Shown: positions 11,428 through 50,944 of the stretch, piece by piece | Position numbering within the stretch: the first letter of the stretch is position 1 | Layout of the letters: each line of letters begins with the position of its first letter | Virus record (IMG/VR): IMGVR_UViG_3300033066_000709 | Span: 1-64,000 of that record | DNA: 64,000 bases | Strand: one strand, 5' to 3' | Origin: a virus | Lineage: Duplodnaviria; Caudoviricetes | Position numbers and translations under genes: made by a program | The notes under the pieces: model-generated | Database searches by the model: none | Seen by the model: only the letters and a program-made list of their open reading frames with translations | Told to the model about the DNA's origin: nothing

Positions 11428-12372
11428 ATGGAACTAATCCAAGAATGTATAATTGTGGCTGCTAAAAAACATGATGGTTATATATTAGCTAAAAATAGAG
11501 ATAGAAGATCATTAAGTGATTATAAAGTTTATCATAATTTATATAAAGGTGTTGAATTAGCATACGCAGAAGATAGTACAGGTTGGACTGAAGGGATGTC
11601 TGAAAATGTTGGATTTGTATATACATATTTTATGAATAAAGATTCCTCCTCATATTATAAATATAGAAGTAAATGGGGTGTGCAATCAGAAATAACTATT
11701 GCTGGCCATAATGGAACAAAAGAAACTAAGAATAGTGAACGAAAAAGAGATGAATTTAAAAATATTTTAACATTCAAAACTGTTGAAAAAGCAGTAGAAT
11801 ATATTAAAACATTAGAATGGAATGGTGCATATTTTGTATGTGATAAAAACAGTGTATATGAAATTGAACATTTTCAATATGAAACTCAAGTTAGAAAATG
11901 TGATTTTTCAAAATCTAATTTTAAAGTTAAAACTAATTATGGTGATATTATAAAAAATGCTGGGCATTTGGATGGAGTTGAGGGAACAGCTCGTGGTAAT
12001 GCAGAAGTTAGGAAAACTGAAACAAAAAGATATCTTTTAGGTTTTAAAAATAGTACTGATATTATAAAACGTATGCAACAAAGAACATTTACAGATTCTT
12101 CCAGTTTAAATGTATTTAGGGTTGATGATGAAGAAAGAACAGTTGGTCAATTATTAATTGATATGAATAATAAAATTTTTCAATTTATTCATCATGATGA
12201 AAATTCAACATTTCATGGATTAAATGAAGATTTACCTAAAGGCTATGATAAAAAAATATCAGTTTATGTTAGAAATAAAAAGGAATTTGATAGAGCTGGT
12301 GAATATAAACAATTTATGTCAAAAAAGGATGATCTTTACTCACACTATAAAACATTTAAAGTTGATTTTTAA
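11428..12372 (+). CDS. Ntn-hydrolase (peptidase C45/choloylglycine hydrolase-like) with 6-aa propeptide
   Basis: CIIVAAK...ILAKNRD, WTEGMSENVG and VKTNY match the Cys-Ntn pattern C...NxD...EGxNExG...TN. Confidence 0.7.
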   Translation: MELIQECIIVAAKKHDGYILAKNRDRRSLSDYKVYHNLYKGVELAYAEDSTGWTEGMSENVGFVYTYFMNKDSSSYYKYRSKWGVQSEITIAGHNGTKETKNSERKRDEFKNILTFKTVEKAVEYIKTLEWNGAYFVCDKNSVYEIEHFQYETQVRKCDFSKSNFKVKTNYGDIIKNAGHLDGVEGTARGNAEVRKTETKRYLLGFKNSTDIIKRMQQRTFTDSSSLNVFRVDDEERTVGQLLIDMNNKIFQFIHHDENSTFHGLNEDLPKGYDKKISVYVRNKKEFDRAGEYKQFMSKKDDLYSHYKTFKVDF

Positions 12373-32534: not shown

Positions 32535-33746
32535 TTATTTTTGTAGGTTAAAGCAATGCTTCAACTTTACAGGACTAACTATAGAGTCCTCTATCCCATT
32601 ATACCATAAGGCATTTGGGACTGCTTTTCTTAATATATTTCCTGCTGCCTGAACGTCAGCATTACAAATGATATTAGTTGAGGTTTTAAAGAGTCCTCGT
32701 TTAACTCTTTTGCCTTGATAAATTTCTTGTTTTTCTATAGGTTCATTATCAAGGAAAGAACACTTACTGGTGTAAGATTCTTCTTGGAGAATAAAGTCTA
32801 TAAAATGATCGTTGCATTTGGATTCTAACTTTCTCTTAAATAGAAAGAATGGAATTAAAACAAAATTTTGGTTGGTCTTAGAACCTAAGTTTATTTTTTG
32901 TTTCCAAGTTTCATTGTAACCACAAACTACAGTACCTATATTGTTTGATAGGCAATGTTTAATTATGTAGGATACAGTTTGATTTAAATAATTATTTATC
33001 CAATTAGACCTATTAATATTAAGTATTGATAGTCGGTTAGACCAATGCTTGTTATTCTTAGTTTTTAGTTCGCTTTGTATCTTAGCTTTACTCTTATTGT
33101 AAAATTGGTTGTATGCCTTTAAAGGCTTTCCATTCATTATAAATGAATGTCCAATATTTGTAACGCACGATGCAAAGTTATTTAAACCTAAGTCTATCGC
33201 TAAACACTTGGATTTGTCCAAGTTTAAATTAATATTCGGTACCTCATCGTATTGAATACATATAGTGTAATAATTATTTGGATGTGGATTTATTATTACT
33301 TGCTTAATAACACCTTTTAAATTAAAGGTGAATGGTATCCTTAAAGCATTAGTTATTTTAAGTTTACCTTTAACTAAAGAAACTTGGTCAGATGGAAGAA
33401 TTAATAAATATTTAGAATCTTTGGGTAAATACTTTGGAGATTTAACAGTGGCAGCATATTCTCCACGTCCTTTTTTCTGAAGTAAAGCAAAAAATGATCT
33501 AAAGTTTTTATCAACCAAACGAACTATTTGTTGGGCTATCTTGGCTGGTAAAGCTTTATAATGATCATTAGTTTTTATTATATGATAAACTTCATTGTAG
33601 CCTAGATATTTATTTGTTTCTTTAAAGTAACCATTAATAACATATAAAGCAGAATTATAAAGTTTCCTAGATTCAGTACACATCCTGGATAACTCCTGAA
33701 ATTCAGTAGAATTTAATTTCCTTATATGTTGTTTTAATGTCCTCAT
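32535..33746 (-). CDS. tnpB: RNA-guided nuclease TnpB, no tnpA
   Basis: SRKLYN, SPKY, AIDLGLNN, QNFV, EESYTSKC, KRGLF, NADVQAA. Confidence 0.93.
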   Translation of the reverse strand: MRTLKQHIRKLNSTEFQELSRMCTESRKLYNSALYVINGYFKETNKYLGYNEVYHIIKTNDHYKALPAKIAQQIVRLVDKNFRSFFALLQKKGRGEYAATVKSPKYLPKDSKYLLILPSDQVSLVKGKLKITNALRIPFTFNLKGVIKQVIINPHPNNYYTICIQYDEVPNINLNLDKSKCLAIDLGLNNFASCVTNIGHSFIMNGKPLKAYNQFYNKSKAKIQSELKTKNNKHWSNRLSILNINRSNWINNYLNQTVSYIIKHCLSNNIGTVVCGYNETWKQKINLGSKTNQNFVLIPFFLFKRKLESKCNDHFIDFILQEESYTSKCSFLDNEPIEKQEIYQGKRVKRGLFKTSTNIICNADVQAAGNILRKAVPNALWYNGIEDSIVSPVKLKHCFNLQK

Positions 33747-33819: not shown

Positions 33820-33849
33820 AACCCTACATATATTATTATACGTAGGGTT
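33820..33849 (-). terminator. Intrinsic terminator overlapping an ECF-type promoter
   Basis: aaccctac-N14-gtagggtt with a U-tract on the - strand. Confidence 0.6.
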
Positions 33850-33865
33850 ATAGTAAATGTTTAAA
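33835..33865 (-). promoter_or_regulatory. Phage ECF-type promoter TTTAAACA-N15-CGTATAAT
   Basis: Exact motif and spacing; upstream of tnpB2. Confidence 0.7.
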
Positions 33866-41664: not shown

Positions 41665-42333
41665 TCACACCTCTTTGTTTATTTTTCTAACTTCATTTAT
41701 TATAGCATTTTTAATTAATGTTCTTCCTATTTTTATTCTAGATTTTATAGTATTTATTGGCAAATTATATTTTTTTGATAAATCTTTATACATCATATTA
41801 TGTATTTCTCTATCTATTAATATATCTCTATATAAATAGCTCAAATTGTGATCTATTTCATGACATATTAATACCATTATATTTCTTCTTTTTTCTCTAT
41901 CTTCCTTTTCGCCTATAATATCTTTAAATTCCGACATTGTATCATATTTAGAATTAACATTACTCAAATCTGATAATTCTATTGTAACTGATGTTTCTTC
42001 ATCAGAAGATTTAATTATATCATTTAAATATAATCTATTTTTTATAGACCTAAACTCGTTCATTATTTCATTTCTTGCTATAGTATATATCCATGTTATA
42101 AACATAGCCTTTCTATAATCATACATGTGTATATTAAATATAACTTTACTAAATGTTCTAGCCATTATTTCATTTACAGTATCTATATCAAATGTATTTG
42201 AACTTGTTTTTATTATAAAGTATTTTAAACCATTTATTAATTTGTTGTATAGTTTTGAAAAATCTTTACTACTTTTTGAATTTATAAAATTTATTGCCAA
42301 TTCTTGTATATTATCTTCTTGTTCATCAACCAT
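41665..42333 (-). CDS. ECF-type sigma-70 factor
   Basis: Region 2 FITWIYTIARN; region 4 YKDLSKKYNLPINTIKSRI. Confidence 0.88.
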   Translation of the reverse strand: MVDEQEDNIQELAINFINSKSSKDFSKLYNKLINGLKYFIIKTSSNTFDIDTVNEIMARTFSKVIFNIHMYDYRKAMFITWIYTIARNEIMNEFRSIKNRLYLNDIIKSSDEETSVTIELSDLSNVNSKYDTMSEFKDIIGEKEDREKRRNIMVLICHEIDHNLSYLYRDILIDREIHNMMYKDLSKKYNLPINTIKSRIKIGRTLIKNAIINEVRKINKEV

Positions 42334-42716: not shown

Positions 42717-42753
42717 TTTTATACTAAAAATATTTAAAAAAATTATTTTTTAT

Positions 42754-42784
42754 ATTATACGAATTGCCATTTAAAATGTTTAAA
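42754..42784 (-). promoter_or_regulatory. Phage ECF-type promoter TTTAAACA-N15-CGTATAAT
   Basis: Exact motif; reads into the sigma factor operon. Confidence 0.75.
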
Positions 42785-42850
42785 TATCGTTATTTAGATT
42801 TTAAAATTTTTTATATATTTTAATAATAGTTTTATTTTATTTAAATGAAA

Positions 42851-42891
42851 ATAGCCAATACCAATCGTTACTAATGAATGATATTGGCTAT
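42851..42891. terminator. Hairpin, possible terminator
   Basis: atagccaata...tattggctat. Confidence 0.5.
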
Positions 42892-42960
42892 AATGATAGT
42901 CTAAAATTTATTTTTGATTCCTTAAAAATAATTTTAAACAAATTTTAAAAATCTCGTAAT

Positions 42961-43121
42961 CCTTGATGTCACCCTCCGAAAACTTAGAACTAACTTAAAG
43001 GTACTTAAAGGGCCTCCTTCCACCAACCTGATTTAAGCCTCCTACCAAACCTCCTACCAAACCTCCTACCAACCAGATTCCAACCTCCTTCCACCAACCA
43101 GATCTATCTATCACCTTTTTT
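42961..43121 (+). ncRNA. Candidate sRNA with five CCUCCU motifs
   Basis: GC-rich repeat island with an ECF-like promoter upstream (42933-42960) and T6 at the end. Confidence 0.3.
43013..43103. repeat. CCTCCT(A/TCC)ACCAA repeat array
   Basis: Five CCTCCT copies; 12-bp unit cctcctaccaaa x3; cctccttccaccaacc x2. Confidence 0.9.
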
Positions 43122-43304
43122 CCTATTGATAGATTCCTGATTTTTAGCATCTATACCCCATAAAGGAGATTTATTGATTTCTTTTTTAACATATTTCCAT
43201 ACTTTATCATTCTTCTGTGGTTCTATTGCTGCAAATGGTATTCTATAATTAGAAGTTTCAGATTTATTACCTTTAAATTCTTCGTATGATATTAGATTTT
43301 TCAT
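43104..43304 (-). CDS. Small protein with capsid-targeting-like leader (start revised to 43304)
   Basis: MKNLISYEEFK; ATG one nt after the tape measure stop. Confidence 0.6.
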   Translation of the reverse strand: MKNLISYEEFKGNKSETSNYRIPFAAIEPQKNDKVWKYVKKEINKSPLWGIDAKNQESINRKKGDR

Positions 43305-43305
43305 A

Positions 43306-46300
43306 TTATTTTCTACCTCCATCTTTTATTCTAAATTGTGCTTTACCACCAGTTAATATGTTTCCTAGATTTTGAATATCTTGTCTTAAACCTGATACAC
43401 CATCATTTAAAGAGTTATCAGGTTTTTTATTCTCATTTCTTATATTCTGTTCTTTAATCATAGTCATTAATTCTCTAATACTATCAACTAGCTCTTTATT
43501 GTCACTAGCTATTTGCTGTATATTCGTTGTATTAGTCGCTGGAGACGACGTTTTACTACTTTCTGTAGCTTTACTTATTAAATCTTTTATGCTTTCTGTA
43601 TTCGTTGCTACGAGTGTTGGATCTAATTTTACTAATTCTGTTATTTTATAATTTAAATCCGAGAAAGAATTCATTCTAGCCACATCAATACTGTTTATTT
43701 GGCTAACGTATTCTTTAAAGTCTCCTAAATGTTGTTTGAATGTTTTAGCAAATTTTGCAAATGGGTCATCTATTTTAGACCAACGTTCAAAGAATTGTAC
43801 TATCTTATCCATAGAATCCAAATTCTTTTTATCTATTTTTGCAGTTACAACATCTTTTATAAATAATTTTAAATCTTTTGTCATTGAACCTATTGTACCA
43901 TTATAATTAGTATCAACGACCTTTAATAAATCATTTATATTATTTTTCATAATTGGCATAATGCCTGTTAACCATTTATAAATATTATCATATCCATATT
44001 GTTTAATAATAGTACCTATAGCTTCTATTGGAGATTTAATAATCTCTGCAATAACCTGTTTTTTAGTTTCCCAATCAGAAACATTAAATTCTTTTTTATT
44101 TAAAGTTTCTGATAACATACCTATACTTGATATTGCTTCTTTTATATTTGATAATACAGATACACCTTTTTCTATCCAATAATTATTTAATAACCAAGAA
44201 TTTTTACCAAAGAAAGAATCTGATATTTCTATATTAGCTTTATCATTTGTTTGTGCTAATCCTAATGCACCAAATGGTGACAATGCAGTCTTTATTATAT
44301 TTTTTATATAATTTGCAGCATTATCAAAATTTATTTTTTTAGAATCTTCTGTACTACTTTTTAATATATCAGCTGCTTTTTGTATAAAATCCATACCATC
44401 CATACCAGCTTTTAATGTTTCTGCTCCAGCCTTTATATTTTCTTTTCTCATAGCCCAATAATTATTACCAAATTGTTGGGTTAAAAATGTTTTATCATTT
44501 TCGTTATTATTTTGTATCAGACCTATAGAACCTAACATTATTAATGTTGTCGAAACTATATCTTTAATATTTTTTTTCAATACATCAACATTTAAATTTT
44601 TATTTTTTTGAATGTCCATGTATGGTTGCAAACTTTTGGATATTGTTTCCAATTCTTTACCAACACCTGATATTGCTTTAACACCAGCTGCAATATCTTC
44701 TGCTTTAGCCATTGTAACTTTACCAGAACCTATTTCACCAAAAACAGTCGCTATTAATGATAATATATCTGTTATATTTTTCTTTATAGAAGGCATTTTC
44801 ATATTATCAATAGTAGAAAATGTTTTTAATCCATTAGCTATACCATTTAATATTTCACCAACACCTTTAACAGAATCTATACCTTTTTTAATAGATTCAT
44901 CATAAACCCAAACTTTCTTTTTATTACCAAATGAATCCGTACTTTCTATATAATCACCCTTTTTACCTATTTCTCCAAAAACATTACTAGTAGCTTTTAT
45001 AACTTCAATCATATTATAAGCTATAGAACCTTTTTCGTTAGGATTAAAAGAATCTGATTTAAATCCCATTTTTTCTAAACTAGCAAATGATTTTAAACCT
45101 TCAGCGATTTCAGAAAAAACTTTACCAACACCATTAACGGCCGATATACCTTTTTCCACATTAGTACTTGTAAATAAACCTGTACCCAAAAATCCCTTAT
45201 CACTTGTAGCCCCTATATCACCGAATGCTTTTGATATTAGATTTATTACGTCAGTTACACTTTTTGATATTTTTTCAACATCTATATTTTGTTTTGATAA
45301 ATCATCCCACATTCTTAAACCATTTGCAATTTCTGTAAATGTTTTACCTATATCTTTTACAGAATCAATACCTTTCTGAACATTTGATTTTGTTATTGTT
45401 ATACCAAATAAACTTAAACTATCATTTGCAATATTAGAAAATGCAGAACTTATCATTCCAATAGTTTTAGAGATACTATCTAATAATAATTTACCACCAT
45501 CTGTACCAAATAAACCTCTTGTTTTTTCATCAAATTGCATTAAACCTTCGGCAACAGATGTCAAAGCTTTACCAGATTCAAATGTAGACTCTATACCCTT
45601 TTGAATAGCAGATTTATCTAACGTCCATAAACCAAAGAAACTTGATGATGGATATTTAACACCCATAGCACCAAATGCTTCGCTTACTGCGGTAATACTT
45701 CTACCCATTTTTTCTAAAAATGAACCTGATTTAGCTAAACCATTTTGGTCTACCGTTAAATCTAATACTTTCATTTTTTCATTAAAATCTAATAAACCTT
45801 GTGATATAGATGTTAATGCTTTACCAGCATGTAATACTGTTTCAACACCTCGTTTAACATTATTTGGTCCTATACCAACAGCATTCATTATACCAGTTAA
45901 AAATCCGCTAAATCCTGTTTTACCATCAGAACCAACTAATGCAAATGCGGTTGTCAATTTTAATAATACATTAGCTATATCATCTATTGGGAATTTTGCC
46001 CAATCTAATTTCAATGCTTCTTGTAAACCATAAGTTAATGTTTTTAATGATAATGCCATACCTGTTACTGCAAATATACCACCAATTATAAATGGCGTTG
46101 CTAAACCTATTGCAGAATAACCCATACTTAAACCAGCCATTAATAATGCTAATTTACCAATACTACTCCACTCTACATCATTTAGCATTTTTAAAGATGA
46201 TAGAGAAGCTACAAATAAAGGTAATGATATAGACATACCAGTTATTGCTACTGATCCTAATATTATTAATGGCGAAAGTAAACCTATTATAGAATATCCT

Positions 46301-49300
46301 ATGCCAAATGCAACCATAGCTAAACCAATTTTCAATATATTCATTATATCTAATTCTGGTAATAATGACATAGATGCTAAACCTAATGTAAATATTGGTA
46401 AAGATACACCCATCATAATTGCTGATATTGAACCTAATATTATAAGTGGTGATAATAAACCTACTATACTAAACGCAACACCCATACCTATTATAACTAC
46501 AGCGCCTAATAATAATTGTCCAATATCTGATACAGACATAACACCTGATAATGCTAATAATCCAGGTGCAAATAATAATAAACCTATACCCATTAAAATT
46601 ACAGATGGTGCACCAATTATACCTATAGAAGCTATAGCAAATGCTATACCATATGCTATTAATACAGCAGCTCCTAATAATAATGTAGCTATATCATTTG
46701 TTTTTAGTGCTAAACTAAATACCGTTAAACCAATACCAAATGCTATAAGTCCCAATCCCATTACTATAGCTGTAGCTGCACCAGCTAATGAAAGAACACC
46801 AGCACCAATTAATGTAAATACTAAACCATATGATAATAATACAACAGAACCCATTAATAATGTACCAATATCCGATACTTTTACTGCTGCACTATATACA
46901 AGCAATCCTATTGAAAATAATGTTAATCCTATACCCATTGCTATAACAGCCAATGAGCCTAATGCTATATCAGTTACAAATTTACCTGCTAAACCAAAAA
47001 CAACTGCATATGCTAATATGGCAACTGAACCTAACAAGACTGTTCCAATATCAACCATTTTAATTATAGATGAATAAGCTAACATAGCTACGGAAAATAA
47101 TAATAATGATATACTCATTGCTATTAATGCTAACGAACCTAATGCTATTTTAGCAGAAGATTTACCAACAGAATCAAATATTTTTGTAGCTATAAACATT
47201 ATACCAAATCCAGCAGCTATAGATATCCAATCTATTTTACTTAAAAGCATACTTGCAGCAAATAAACTTAATGAAAATACCACCAATGCTGGTCCTAATC
47301 CAACTAAAATTAATGATAATTTCATAAGTTTAGCTGCACCTTTTGAAATTTCCTTTAATATTTTTATTGCGGTTGATATAAAAAATATACCTGCTAGTGC
47401 TATAGGTGCTATAGGTGCTATTAATGTAAATTTTAAAGCCATACTAAAAATACTTTTACCTATATTAGCCATGAAATCTGCACCCTTTTTAGCTTTCATT
47501 ATTATAGGATTATTGATAACTATTCTATCGAATAAAATAAACATCGAATCAAAAAGAGAATTTACCACCTTTATTTGTTTTGTGGCAAGTTTTAATTTCT
47601 TATCATCAAGAGAATTTAAACCAATTAATATATTATCAATAGATTTGAATATTGATGAAAATGCAAATTTCAATTTTAAAATATCAGTTATTTTAGGTAT
47701 ATTAAAATTCATCATCATTTTTATTAATGACATCACTGGTGTCATTATTATTTCTATACTCTTAGCTTTTGAATCTATTTTATTTTTTTTAATATAATCC
47801 GATATTGATGATATTGTTAAAAATAGCTCTGGTATAGATTCAAAAAATATATGTAATGAATCTATACTTTTTTCAGCTACTTTTGGTTTAATATCAATTT
47901 TAGTAAATTTTGAAAATAATTCAAAACTTTTGCCTAATATTAAATCCATATTACCAATAGTAGATTTAATATCAGCTGGTTTATATTTTTTTAATATTGC
48001 TGATATAGAACTAAAATTTACAAAACTAGAATTTAAAGCACTTAAAAATTCACCAAAAGTTTCTATATTTTTATTAGCAACTTTATAATTTATATCCATC
48101 ATTGATATTTTTTCAAACAATTCAAATGATGATGTTATAGTAGTTAATATGCCTGGTACATCATATTTTCTCATTATTCTGCCTAATAACCAAAAAGTTA
48201 AAGACATTTTTAATATTGACACTGAAATATTACCTAATGTTTCTGAACCATTAGTTAATATTTTCCTAATACCAAATAATCCAAACCAACCAACCATATT
48301 AGCCACTTTAAACATTGACCAAAATGATACCATAGCAAATGGTATAAATGGAAATATAAGTGCTGCTAATATAAAACTAATCTGCATACTTTTAATAGCT
48401 TTAACTATAGATTTAAAAACTTCAATAGATGTATCATATCTATCAGGATTTTGTGTTATTTTATCTAATAAATCTACTATTTTTCCAAATCCTCCAGATA
48501 TAGCTTCTGTTAATTTTATAAATTTATTAACTTTTGATTTTTTAATATCTGAAATTTCTTCTATGAATTTTACTAAACCTTTAGCTATTAAAACTAAAGT
48601 TTTATTTATATCTTTTTTTGGTATTTTTTTATGTAATAAAACATCGGATATTTTATCAACTATAGTTACAACATTATTGACTAAACTTTCTACATCAACT
48701 CTATCTTGTATTTTTGCATAATCTTTTAATGCACCAACAAAACCTTTCAATAATTCACCCATATTTTTTAAACCATGAGTTATTGTTTTCATATCTTCTG
48801 GTTTAAATCCACCAATAGTTGACGTTTTCTTATTTTTAGATTTTGCTTCTGATGGACTATCTATAGTTTTATTGGCACTTTTAAACATATTATCAAGTTT
48901 ACCAAATGATGAATCACTTGATTGTTTTTCAAAACCTTTTAGAGATGAAATACTATCACCTTGACCAGACATAGATCCTATAATAGAACCTAATACAGAT
49001 GTTTGCACATCTATAGATTTTTTAATAGCTGATAATAAAGATGGTACGTCTGTTAATGATTTAGATATTGTAGTTAATAAACTTTCACTAACAATTTTAT
49101 TATCTTTTTTAAATTCTTTTTTATCCTTTTTTGGTTCTGTTACATCTTTTTTAGATAATTCATCTATTTTACTATACATTTTACCAAATAAAGAATCAAA
49201 TACGGATGTTTGCACATCTATAGATTTTTTAATATCAGATAATAGGGATGGTACATCCATTAATGTGGTTGATATGGATGATAATAAACTTTGACTCTTA

Positions 49301-49488
49301 GATTTATTAACAGTTTGTACTTCTTTAACTATAAGATCTAATTGGCCAGTGATAGCGGAATAAGTTTTTTTAGAAGTTTCCGCATTTATTTTATGAAAAT
49401 CAAAAAGTTGTTGATAAATCTCATTACCTTCATTTGTAGATTTATCCAACTTTTCTAAAATTTTAAGTATTTCTTTATCTCTTTCCAA
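43306..49488 (-). CDS. Tail tape measure protein
   Basis: 2060 aa, helical and A/G/I/L/S-rich, with a long hydrophobic core; follows gp26/gp51-like genes; TTG start. Confidence 0.85.
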   Translation of the reverse strand: MERDKEILKILEKLDKSTNEGNEIYQQLFDFHKINAETSKKTYSAITGQLDLIVKEVQTVNKSKSQSLLSSISTTLMDVPSLLSDIKKSIDVQTSVFDSLFGKMYSKIDELSKKDVTEPKKDKKEFKKDNKIVSESLLTTISKSLTDVPSLLSAIKKSIDVQTSVLGSIIGSMSGQGDSISSLKGFEKQSSDSSFGKLDNMFKSANKTIDSPSEAKSKNKKTSTIGGFKPEDMKTITHGLKNMGELLKGFVGALKDYAKIQDRVDVESLVNNVVTIVDKISDVLLHKKIPKKDINKTLVLIAKGLVKFIEEISDIKKSKVNKFIKLTEAISGGFGKIVDLLDKITQNPDRYDTSIEVFKSIVKAIKSMQISFILAALIFPFIPFAMVSFWSMFKVANMVGWFGLFGIRKILTNGSETLGNISVSILKMSLTFWLLGRIMRKYDVPGILTTITSSFELFEKISMMDINYKVANKNIETFGEFLSALNSSFVNFSSISAILKKYKPADIKSTIGNMDLILGKSFELFSKFTKIDIKPKVAEKSIDSLHIFFESIPELFLTISSISDYIKKNKIDSKAKSIEIIMTPVMSLIKMMMNFNIPKITDILKLKFAFSSIFKSIDNILIGLNSLDDKKLKLATKQIKVVNSLFDSMFILFDRIVINNPIIMKAKKGADFMANIGKSIFSMALKFTLIAPIAPIALAGIFFISTAIKILKEISKGAAKLMKLSLILVGLGPALVVFSLSLFAASMLLSKIDWISIAAGFGIMFIATKIFDSVGKSSAKIALGSLALIAMSISLLLFSVAMLAYSSIIKMVDIGTVLLGSVAILAYAVVFGLAGKFVTDIALGSLAVIAMGIGLTLFSIGLLVYSAAVKVSDIGTLLMGSVVLLSYGLVFTLIGAGVLSLAGAATAIVMGLGLIAFGIGLTVFSLALKTNDIATLLLGAAVLIAYGIAFAIASIGIIGAPSVILMGIGLLLFAPGLLALSGVMSVSDIGQLLLGAVVIIGMGVAFSIVGLLSPLIILGSISAIMMGVSLPIFTLGLASMSLLPELDIMNILKIGLAMVAFGIGYSIIGLLSPLIILGSVAITGMSISLPLFVASLSSLKMLNDVEWSSIGKLALLMAGLSMGYSAIGLATPFIIGGIFAVTGMALSLKTLTYGLQEALKLDWAKFPIDDIANVLLKLTTAFALVGSDGKTGFSGFLTGIMNAVGIGPNNVKRGVETVLHAGKALTSISQGLLDFNEKMKVLDLTVDQNGLAKSGSFLEKMGRSITAVSEAFGAMGVKYPSSSFFGLWTLDKSAIQKGIESTFESGKALTSVAEGLMQFDEKTRGLFGTDGGKLLLDSISKTIGMISSAFSNIANDSLSLFGITITKSNVQKGIDSVKDIGKTFTEIANGLRMWDDLSKQNIDVEKISKSVTDVINLISKAFGDIGATSDKGFLGTGLFTSTNVEKGISAVNGVGKVFSEIAEGLKSFASLEKMGFKSDSFNPNEKGSIAYNMIEVIKATSNVFGEIGKKGDYIESTDSFGNKKKVWVYDESIKKGIDSVKGVGEILNGIANGLKTFSTIDNMKMPSIKKNITDILSLIATVFGEIGSGKVTMAKAEDIAAGVKAISGVGKELETISKSLQPYMDIQKNKNLNVDVLKKNIKDIVSTTLIMLGSIGLIQNNNENDKTFLTQQFGNNYWAMRKENIKAGAETLKAGMDGMDFIQKAADILKSSTEDSKKINFDNAANYIKNIIKTALSPFGALGLAQTNDKANIEISDSFFGKNSWLLNNYWIEKGVSVLSNIKEAISSIGMLSETLNKKEFNVSDWETKKQVIAEIIKSPIEAIGTIIKQYGYDNIYKWLTGIMPIMKNNINDLLKVVDTNYNGTIGSMTKDLKLFIKDVVTAKIDKKNLDSMDKIVQFFERWSKIDDPFAKFAKTFKQHLGDFKEYVSQINSIDVARMNSFSDLNYKITELVKLDPTLVATNTESIKDLISKATESSKTSSPATNTTNIQQIASDNKELVDSIRELMTMIKEQNIRNENKKPDNSLNDGVSGLRQDIQNLGNILTGGKAQFRIKDGGRK

Positions 49489-49998: not shown

Positions 49999-50944
49999 CT
50001 TGAAAGTTTATGGGTGAGGCAACCTCTGTGCCACAAGAAGTACAAGTATGTAATATATTAGGATTAATTGATTCTTGTAACAAATCAATAATACCAACAA
50101 CTATACTCATTTTCTTAACTGACCATTGGAATGAATCATCATTAACCAATTTATATTGTCGCTCACTCATAGCTCTCCAATTTGGAAATAAAAATGGAGC
50201 TATTTTTAAAAATGCTGTATCAAAATATTCATTTTTTTGTCTTTTAGTTCTAACTAAATTCTTAATCCAATTAGTAACACCCAATGTAGGTACAAATAAT
50301 TCTATACGTTCACCACCTTTAGTGTTTAAAATAAAACTTTTTTCATCACTAGAATAAAATCTTTGTATTTTTTCATCCATTTTGAAAATATTAAAATTGT
50401 TTTTTCCAATTTCAATTAAATCAGAATGACCACATTGATTACAATTTATAGTCATTTGTAATTTGTTTTCACCATCTTTAAATGTATATTCTCTAATAGC
50501 AAAAATTAAAGAAAAACGATCTATTTCCAAAATATCCTTGAATGATAAAATACCAGTTGGAGTATTTATTCTTGTACATTTTTCCAAAATAAAATTTAAC
50601 TTGTCGTCAATATCTATAACATCTTGTTCTTCTATAGTGGAAAAATGTCTAATCTCTTGAACACTTGCAGCACGTATCAATATTTGAGTACCTTCAACAT
50701 AAAATTTACCTTCGCTAGGTAAATTTTCCACTGGTATATTCTTCCAACCAATATCACCAGCCATATTCCTCGTTTCTTCACGACGTTCAATTTTACTCTG
50801 AACCATTTGTGATTTGCCGAGAGATTTTAAAACTTCTTCTTCATCAACAACATTTGATTCTTGTCCATTAGCTCTATTTTGAGCATTTATAGCTTCCGTT
50901 TTTTTCTGTAGCAGTTGTTTAGCTAATTCTTCATCTATAGGCAT
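49946..50944 (-). CDS. gp26-like baseplate hub assembly/tail chaperone
   Basis: LPSEGKFY, IRAASVQE, DRFSLIFAIR, two CxxC motifs, PTLG. Confidence 0.75.
   Translation of the reverse strand: MPIDEELAKQLLQKKTEAINAQNRANGQESNVVDEEEVLKSLGKSQMVQSKIERREETRNMAGDIGWKNIPVENLPSEGKFYVEGTQILIRAASVQEIRHFSTIEEQDVIDIDDKLNFILEKCTRINTPTGILSFKDILEIDRFSLIFAIREYTFKDGENKLQMTINCNQCGHSDLIEIGKNNFNIFKMDEKIQRFYSSDEKSFILNTKGGERIELFVPTLGVTNWIKNLVRTKRQKNEYFDTAFLKIAPFLFPNWRAMSERQYKLVNDDSFQWSVKKMSIVVGIIDLLQESINPNILHTCTSCGTEVASPINFQGGIKGLFLYTDIFDELV

Follow-up and report, generated by a model that had tools for sequence, protein, structure and literature searches.

A Non-coding, Promoter-Linked Module in a T4-like Phage

The 64,000-nucleotide stretch of DNA analyzed here (the window) opens a virus record of 101 kb in IMG/VR (IMGVR_UViG_3300033066_000709, G000 below), the completeness of which is about 33% by CheckV estimate. 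The GC content of the record is 26.5%, and nearly all genes lie on the minus strand. Judged by its T4-type baseplate matches, the phage is a distant T4-like myovirus. The subject of this work is a cassette of roughly 260 bp, referred to below as the module, which consists of a promoter, a leader of about 40 nt, and a variable C-rich repeat array, all read along the plus strand (Table 1). On the minus strand, the module directly follows the stop codon of a 72-aa open reading frame (ORF); further along that strand come an AT-rich gap, a 99-aa ORF, the gene for an extracytoplasmic function (ECF)-like sigma factor, and a glucosaminidase gene. The module is a real feature of the phage: it is non-coding, promoter-linked, and either mobile or duplicated.

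Phage sequence was compared across three fragments, G000, G001 (67 kb), and G002, 218 kb in all. As relatives of the module we took contigs carrying homologues of the 72-aa ORF together with L018 and L019, two IMG/VR contigs that lie inside G001 and G002 and were found by the leader pattern; seven element variants were compared.

Table 1. Features at and around the module (positions in the window)
Feature	Position	Strand	Description
ECF-like sigma factor gene	41665-42333		Sigma70_r2 and r4_2 domains
Divergent promoter of the same family	42754-42783	-	drives the 99-aa ORF and the sigma factor gene
Intrinsic terminator of the minus-strand operon	42843-42891	-	dG -17.9 kcal/mol, z -6.0, followed by UUUUCAUUU
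Upstream edge of the module	42902-42932	+	A/T-rich stretch before the -35 box
Phage-type promoter	42933-42960	+	TTTAAACA at 42933-40, 14-nt spacer, CGTAAT at 42955-60
Leader core	42974-43014	+	CTCC-AAAAC-TTAGAAC-TA-ACTTAAAGG-T-ACTTAAAGGGCC
"Glycine-zipper" ORF	42995-43150	-	51 aa (39 aa from GTG); read as a by-product of the G-rich strand
Variable tandem array	43013-43105	+	C-rich, G-poor units of 12, 22, and 25 nt with CCTCC cores
72-aa ORF	43104-43322	-	convergent with the module; last gene of the operon containing the 2060-aa protein
Weak hairpin with U5	hairpin 43106-13/43127-34, U5 43141-45	+	dG -8.3 kcal/mol, z -2.7
2060-aa protein gene	43306-49488	-	many predicted membrane-spanning, Gly/Ala/Ile-rich repeats

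The Module Carries a Promoter of a Family Enriched in the Phage

A preliminary description of this DNA, made from its letters alone, had proposed a shortened variant of a phage promoter upstream of the C-rich island. Both boxes and the 14-nt spacer are as it described them, and the family is indeed enriched: TTAAAC-N14-19-CGTA has six matches in the window against 0.62 expected, about a tenfold excess, and the motif occurs 8 (G000), 4, and 4 times in the three fragments, with about 0.5 expected in each. Neither the sigma-70 consensus nor the Bacteroidota consensus TTTG/TAnnTTTG is enriched in these fragments. The commonest form, TTTAAACA-N15-CGTA(T/A/C)AAT, stands 25-90 nt upstream of minus-strand genes, among them the 99-aa/sigma factor operon and a gene for a gp32-like single-stranded DNA-binding protein of G001. 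The module copy is the sole intergenic member of the family directed along the plus strand; it lies about 150 nt from the promoter of the sigma operon and diverges from it. The motif, ECF-like in type (AAC/CGT), is probably read by the neighboring phage ECF-like sigma factor.

Two members of the family may be singled out. The gp32-like gene of G001 (43599-44630, minus strand; PHROG 224, E 7e-31) lies behind a perfect TTTAAACA-N15-CGTACAAT promoter and has an AAGGAG Shine-Dalgarno (SD) sequence, which places this promoter class on replication genes besides the sigma operon. A second N14-spaced copy, at 50305-50329 on the minus strand, is inside a 332-aa T4-baseplate-like ORF and upstream of a 145-aa ORF; it may be an internal promoter.

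A C-Rich Island with the Strongest C-over-G Skew of the Record

Five of the six CCTCCT hexamers of the window lie on the plus strand within 43013-43089 (at 43013, 43038, 43050, 43062, and 43084), the preliminary description also having counted five in the island, and the sole other copy in 64 kb, both strands counted, is at 11645. By dinucleotide shuffling, some eight copies would be expected, scattered through the window, while the real ones are clustered in the island; outside it, CCTCCT/AGGAGG is strongly avoided (one copy versus about eight expected in 64 kb). Two more motifs pointed out earlier, TCACCCTCC at 42970-42978 and ATCACCT at 43109-43115, are also present. The GC content of the island is 0.37-0.40, compared with about 0.2 in its surroundings, and its GC skew is -0.57 to -0.62. 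A 12-nt unit, CCTCCTACCAAA, is repeated in 2.9 tandem copies within it. The excess of C over G, calculated as (C-G)/78 nt, reaches 0.45 at 43038, the highest value of the 101-kb record (mean 0.04, SD 0.07).

A tRNA search found none at the site, and Rfam returned no family at E<=1 for the window region or for its counterparts in L002, L018, or L010. Comparison of the region with a phage GenBank collection by blastn gave no match, and in IMG/VR neither the sigma factor nor the C terminus of the 2060-aa protein, used as protein queries, recovered any relatives.

The Leader Is Kept While the Array Varies

In the databases, homologues of the 72-aa ORF fall into three lineages only: that of the window, the L010 type (93% identity), and the L002 type (76%). 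The large neighboring protein is 94% identical to that of the window in the L010 type and 59% in the L002 type. All seven variants of the module have a common order: AAAATA-TTTTAAACAAA, which is invariant (7/7), a 14/15-nt spacer, CGTAA, about 13 variable nucleotides, the leader, and the C-rich repeat array. The spacer sequence is unrelated between lineages; indeed, L002 retains both promoter boxes around 15 nt of entirely different sequence. The leader shared by all seven reads CTCC-AAAA-CT(T/A)AGA-CTA-CTTAAAGGTA-CT-AAAGGG-CC. Its core, the same in the window, L018, and L019, holds three ACTTARARR repeats about 10 nt apart. When the window is aligned with L002, 33 of the 40 positions of the core agree, compared with 63% identity in the adjacent upstream intergenic DNA; synonymous third positions of the small neighboring gene show 80% identity, and the C terminus of the large gene 73%. 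The leader is thus better conserved than the intergenic DNA that flanks it, an argument that is moderate rather than strong because the window and L002 lineages are not very distant.

The array differs from phage to phage. In the window, its units are, in order, 25, 12, 12, 22, and 25 nt long. L018 lacks one of the 12-nt units and differs in its distal units, L019 has gained a 22-nt unit and a 1-nt insertion, and the 12-nt units are missing from L010 and L013. In L002 and L003 the array consists of a 33-nt unit repeated 2.5 times, and the two differ from each other by 1-nt shifts. Unit number and order vary between near-identical phages. CTCC is nevertheless found four to eight times in every variant, and GGAG is found on the plus strand of none. 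CCTCC occurs four to seven times in the window, L018, L019, L010, and L013. CUCC and CUCCUACCAAA are shared by the two array families, and the longest strings common to both, ACTTAAAGGGCC and CTCCTACCAAA, are not found elsewhere in the 218 kb of phage sequence.

Pattern scans for more distant copies returned little. A scan of viral contigs for the leader pattern gave two true relatives (L018 and L019), and the same scan of metagenome contigs gave one match, by chance. The array pattern CTCCTACCAA x2 matched 80 IMG/VR loci; besides L018 and L019, all are coding and represent Thr-Pro-Thr-Asn linkers of unrelated, GC-richer phages. Among 185,579 prokaryote genomes, there was no match to the leader and 36 chance or coding matches to the unit pattern (for example, fasciclin-like genes of Bacteroidota); no host-borne counterpart of the array was found in these scans.

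The Putative Plus-Strand RNA Is Predicted to Be Unstructured

The RNA predicted from the plus strand contains no ORF and is essentially unpaired (185 nt with a minimum free energy of -15.6 kcal/mol; z +0.32). Both the minimum free energy and the centroid structures leave the array unpaired; the motifs of such an RNA would therefore be exposed. The preliminary description had seen the end of the island in a run of six T residues, which is present at 43116-43121 but is no conserved terminator: it corresponds to Lys-Lys codons of the 72-aa ORF and is absent from L002 and L018. A weak hairpin followed by U5 (Table 1), located within the 66/72-aa ORF, is not matched in L002 or L018; where the 72-aa gene is present, and only there, this hairpin may mark the 3' end of the plus-strand RNA.

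From these data, our best explanation, to which we give an even chance, is that the region is a promoter-driven gene for an unstructured C-rich non-coding RNA that acts through exposed CUCC repeats. Its phage-specific promoter would probably be read by the phage's own ECF-like sigma factor. We infer a transcript start near 42965-42970; the conserved leader of about 40 nt would then be followed by rapidly evolving tandem units, rich in C, A, and U and poor in G, each with CUCC, which in this phage is CCUCC. The resulting RNA, mostly single-stranded and about 150-200 nt long, would display four to eight CUCC motifs and act by multivalent single-stranded contacts, most likely by pairing with GGAG-type (SD-like) segments. 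Segments of this type occur in the complementary 3' untranslated region (UTR) of the convergent late operon and upstream of the few SD-led phage genes or of host mRNAs. The production of this RNA, its ends, and its partner are all inferred from sequence.

Several observations weigh against this explanation. L002 and L003 lack the CCTCC core and carry six GCTCC in its place. No terminator of the plus-strand RNA is conserved among the variants. No extended complementary target was found in the 218 kb of phage sequence beyond 5-6-nt SD-like matches, and a separate examination of the conserved 11-mer and the leader motif likewise gave no extended complementarity elsewhere in these 218 kb. In the window-type context, transcription also covers the opposite strand of the module, as a predicted 3' UTR, and either strand may therefore be the functional one. 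Finally, the shared 11-12-mers and the leader could partly reflect common descent and not selection, since only three lineages are known and the most distant pair is about 80% identical at synonymous sites.

If it is transcribed, the module would encode an unusual RNA, deliberately unstructured and multivalent, with the complement of GGAG in its repeats, and this in a phage most of whose genes are without an SD sequence. It would then offer a handle on how a phage discriminates between SD-led and SD-less translation, or on how it interferes with Rho or with an RNA-binding defense protein. To our knowledge, few phage-encoded regulatory RNAs have been described, and almost none come from large environmental phages.

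The Module Occurs in Different Gene Contexts

The module is present in at least two, and probably three, gene contexts. In the window, L010, and L002, it stands between the divergent sigma operon and the convergent 72-aa gene. In L013 and L014, genes of 102 and 78 aa and a terminator precede it, and the convergent 72-aa gene follows; these are short, low-coverage contigs from two different samples and may be mis-joined at the repeat. In L018 and L019, the same 102-aa and 78-aa genes and terminator are followed by the module, an AT-rich spacer of 165 nt, an Hsp20 gene, and a glycosyltransferase gene, all co-directional. The sole DNA common to G000 and G001 is 159 nt of the module, starting at 42902 and 100% identical, and each fragment (50-100 kb) has one copy. 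In four runs, Logan contigs with the 78-aa gene all end at one and the same base, some 30 nt inside the shared stretch, and many contigs with the 72/66-aa gene end inside the array. The breakpoint is systematic, being seen in many samples (L004-L009, L011, L012, L015-L017, and L151-L155), and is the effect that a dispersed or length-polymorphic repeat has on a de Bruijn graph. The simplest reading of the breaks and of the shared copy is that there are two copies per genome or that the module was recently transferred between phages. In practical terms, this dispersed repeat of variable length interrupts the assembly of these phages from short reads.

These contexts raise the possibility that the module works as DNA: a mobile regulatory cassette that supplies a promoter where it lands and mediates recombination between gene blocks, its C-rich array being a neutral minisatellite or a protein-binding repeat without RNA function. 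The position of the module at junctions of differently arranged gene blocks, the identical copy as the only DNA shared by two fragments, the assembly breaks, and an array that gains and loses units like a minisatellite all speak for such a cassette. In L018 the module is upstream of, and co-directional with, the Hsp20 and glycosyltransferase genes and could simply be their promoter. On the other hand, the window, L010, and L002 contexts offer no plus-strand gene to drive; the boxes and the leader are kept though the large neighboring protein is only 59% identical across lineages; and the extreme asymmetry of C over G, with G absent, is unneeded for a promoter or a binding site in duplex DNA. 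Moreover, only one copy is seen per 50-100-kb fragment, and neither the leader motif nor the unit motifs recur in the remainder of the 218 kb. We regard this explanation as possible but unlikely.

T4-type phages do carry cassettes of this sort, known as PeSLs, which combine a promoter with a conserved stem-loop and have many copies per genome (PMC2839356, PMC4122927). Like PeSLs, the module is a repeated, promoter-containing intergenic unit in a T4-like genome, bordering shuffled gene blocks; three arrangements and a 100% identical copy were found. It differs in having no stem-loop in the shared unit, a C-rich array of 100-150 nt, and a single copy per 50-100-kb fragment. The terminator hairpins upstream of the module vary from one context to another and fall beyond the shared stretch.

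The Hsp20 gene (PF00011; L018 6496-6834, minus strand, and the same in G001) has a strong SD sequence, AAGGAG, and the gene after it in L018/G001 is a 639-aa glycosyltransferase-like ORF. An RNA thermometer at Hsp20 was considered and set aside: the L018 fold pairs the Hsp20 SD with CCUCCU, but its z score is only -0.86, which is suggestive at best.

The Minus Strand of the Module

The strong intrinsic terminator of the minus-strand operon (Table 1) has a counterpart in L002 (-18.4 kcal/mol, z -5.1, U8 tail). Because this terminator is downstream of the whole module, the module is also part of the 3' UTR of that operon in the window-type and L002-type contexts, and a plus-strand RNA would therefore be perfectly antisense to that UTR. 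Hence, the functional product could instead be the minus strand, with GGAG repeats in the 3' UTR of the late operon (the 2060-aa and 66/72-aa genes) serving as a recognition array for a protein or RNase or as a 3' stabilizer, and with the plus-strand promoter as an antisense regulator. The array would indeed be in the mRNA, and the core shared by the variants reads GGAG on this strand. However, L018 and L019 have no gene or recognizable promoter that feeds the G-rich strand, the minus-strand RNA folds no better than shuffled sequences (z -0.5), and no RegB-like GGAG nuclease (PF10715) was found in the three fragments. Because the G-rich strand has no obvious source of transcription in the Hsp20 context, we favor the plus strand, common to all contexts, as the functional one and consider a functional minus strand distinctly unlikely.

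The same strand had been suggested to encode a glycine-zipper membrane peptide. In its current form, this idea covers a peptide of 39-51 aa or an extension of the 66/72-aa protein by read-through or frameshift. In its favor, the window has the frame open, both repeat periods (12 nt and 33 nt) are divisible by three, and the window, L013, and L002 share the same TAA stop after ..F(K/S)YL. Against this, the frame is shifted in L019 relative to L018 by the 22-nt duplication and in L003 relative to L002 by 1-nt indels; in L010 a TAG comes early and one nucleotide is deleted; and L018 lacks both an ATG or GTG and the upstream 72-aa gene. The test of frame conservation, which the preliminary description had named, speaks against the peptide, as four of the six other variants have a frameshift, stop too early, or lack the start. 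The peptides of the lineages are unrelated save for the terminal F-x-Y-L, and the DNA that encodes it is conserved past the stop codon. Two of the three frames of the G-rich strand are open merely by composition, and the peptide has no Pfam or PHROG match. In the absence of a conserved minus-strand ORF, we rejected both the peptide and the extension of the 72-aa ORF; a coding function is highly improbable.

The many GG runs of the minus strand, together with the AT-rich DNA at 42720-42850, had also suggested a G-quadruplex or an R-loop replication origin. T4-type origins are promoter-dependent, which agrees with the presence of a promoter here. A conserved set of four G-runs scoring about 1.2 or higher in G4Hunter would have pointed to a G-quadruplex; the maximum at the site is 1.12, below that threshold, scores are lower still in the relatives (0.88-0.92), and no three-tier, GGG-type motif is present. 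The check proposed earlier for an origin, GC skew, gave no origin-like switch: the cumulative skew runs straight through the site. Direct repeats and AT-rich DNA, as in iteron-type origins, are present, but there is no skew inflection and no initiator gene adjacent by Pfam/PHROG. Furthermore, a pyrimidine-rich RNA, which is what the linked promoter would yield, has an unfavorable polarity for a stable R-loop. Either structure is very improbable.

Possible Targets and Comparison with Known RNAs

Returning to the plus-strand CUCC-repeat RNA, a pairing partner of the SD type bears on how the phage starts translation. According to the preliminary description, the phage's own genes show no SD. This is true of most of them, which have A/T-rich leaders, but about 19% carry an SD-like motif: a GGAG/GAGG/AGGA 4-mer is found upstream of 17 of 88 ORFs, against a 5% background, and AGGAG stands 5-7 nt before the ATG in about six or seven genes, mostly of replication type. 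AGGAG-led genes of G000 include 72860-73504, 88087-88881, 90696-91067, and 96004-96513. These data suggest two classes of translation start in one phage.

A more specific proposal is that this jumbo T4-like phage makes, from a promoter read by its own sigma factor, an RNA with four to eight anti-SD cores that masks SD-led mRNAs, or titrates a factor that recognizes the 16S tail, such as bS21, which with bS18 and bS6 holds that tail; units would be added to and dropped from the array rapidly, and its copy number would be adjusted in this way. Such an RNA would re-program which messages the host ribosome initiates on. bS21 (PF01165) was not found in the 101-kb fragment, and we judge this version doubtful. 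The anti-SD small RNA (sRNA) put forward earlier survives as the best available reading only in the broader form of a CUCC-repeat RNA, and not as a proven anti-SD mimic. The window lineage does resemble the 3' tail of 16S rRNA, in that its ACCUCCUU and CCUCCU strings match the anti-SD core exactly. A strict mimic of the tail is nonetheless weakened by the conservation of the C-rich motifs, in which CUCC is kept in all variants and CCTCC is not, the L002 lineage having GCUCC. There is also no rRNA context. Nor could a Bacteroidota host be confirmed, the promoter consensus of that phylum not being enriched in the fragments. Large freshwater Bacteroidota phages of similar size and GC content have been described (PMC9723584), and the anti-SD is sequestered in Bacteroidota ribosomes (PMC7797042); as to the host, both are only leads.

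The closest known sRNAs are the C-rich, SD-targeting ones: the RsaE/Rsa family of Staphylococcus aureus with its UCCC motif (PMC2790875) and 6C of Mycobacterium tuberculosis (PMC6486639). Like them, the module is predicted to be non-coding, to have its own promoter, and to present several C-rich motifs complementary to G-rich ribosome-binding sites. In RsaE and 6C, however, the motifs are in loops of stable hairpins, and these RNAs have intrinsic terminators and are chromosomal and well conserved, whereas the module is predicted to be unstructured and is a phage-borne tandem array of variable copy number without a conserved terminator. When the module was examined for features of this type, no significant structure was found, only the weak, context-specific hairpin with U5.

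A plus-strand RNA might also act on a protein, as a Rho loading site or decoy, or as a decoy for a host RNA-binding defense toxin. Phage precedent for repeat-RNA decoys exists in pseudo-ToxI and the type III antitoxins (PMC5086642), with which the module has in common a promoter followed by short tandem repeats, a repeat number that varies between close phages, and a possible decoy logic. It differs in lacking an Rfam match (E<=1), a regular 34-40-nt unit (in the window lineage), and a terminator or adjacent toxin gene, and no host toxin is known for it. The units of L002 are regular (33 nt, x2.5), but those of the window type are irregular (12, 22, and 25 nt). Neither a type III antitoxin nor any other Rfam family was matched, and the scans of the 185,579 prokaryote genomes turned up no similar array.

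As to Rho, a rut (Rho utilization) site is a C-rich, G-poor, unstructured RNA of 80 nt or more. The module has these properties in the window, where the strongest 78-nt C>G stretch of the record ((C-G)/78 = 0.45) is predicted to be unstructured; they are weaker in L002, whose arrays contain 18% G. Rut sites are normally part of a longer transcript. The module differs from them as a conserved, stand-alone, promoter-linked unit with repeated CUCC cores. We consider a protein-directed RNA quite improbable.

Neighboring Genes

The 2060-aa protein has no Pfam or PHROG match and only three homologue clusters among 5.8 billion proteins; by its position, it may be a tape-measure or ejection protein. 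The 72-aa ORF that follows it probably starts at its second ATG, at 43304, which gives a 66-aa product (MKNLISYEEF...). This start is preferred because the relatives begin at MKNLISY (two of three homologue clusters). GGAGG is located 11 nt upstream of the 43304 ATG, within the end of the 2060-aa gene.

Elsewhere in the window, a 403-aa ORF (32535-33746, minus strand) matches PHROG 506, "transposase" (E 4e-40), and may be an IS200/IS605-type TnpB-like gene in a lytic-type phage. It is preceded by a copy of the promoter family at 33839-33864 on the minus strand, the spacer of which pairs with sequence downstream in a hairpin that precedes a T-run.

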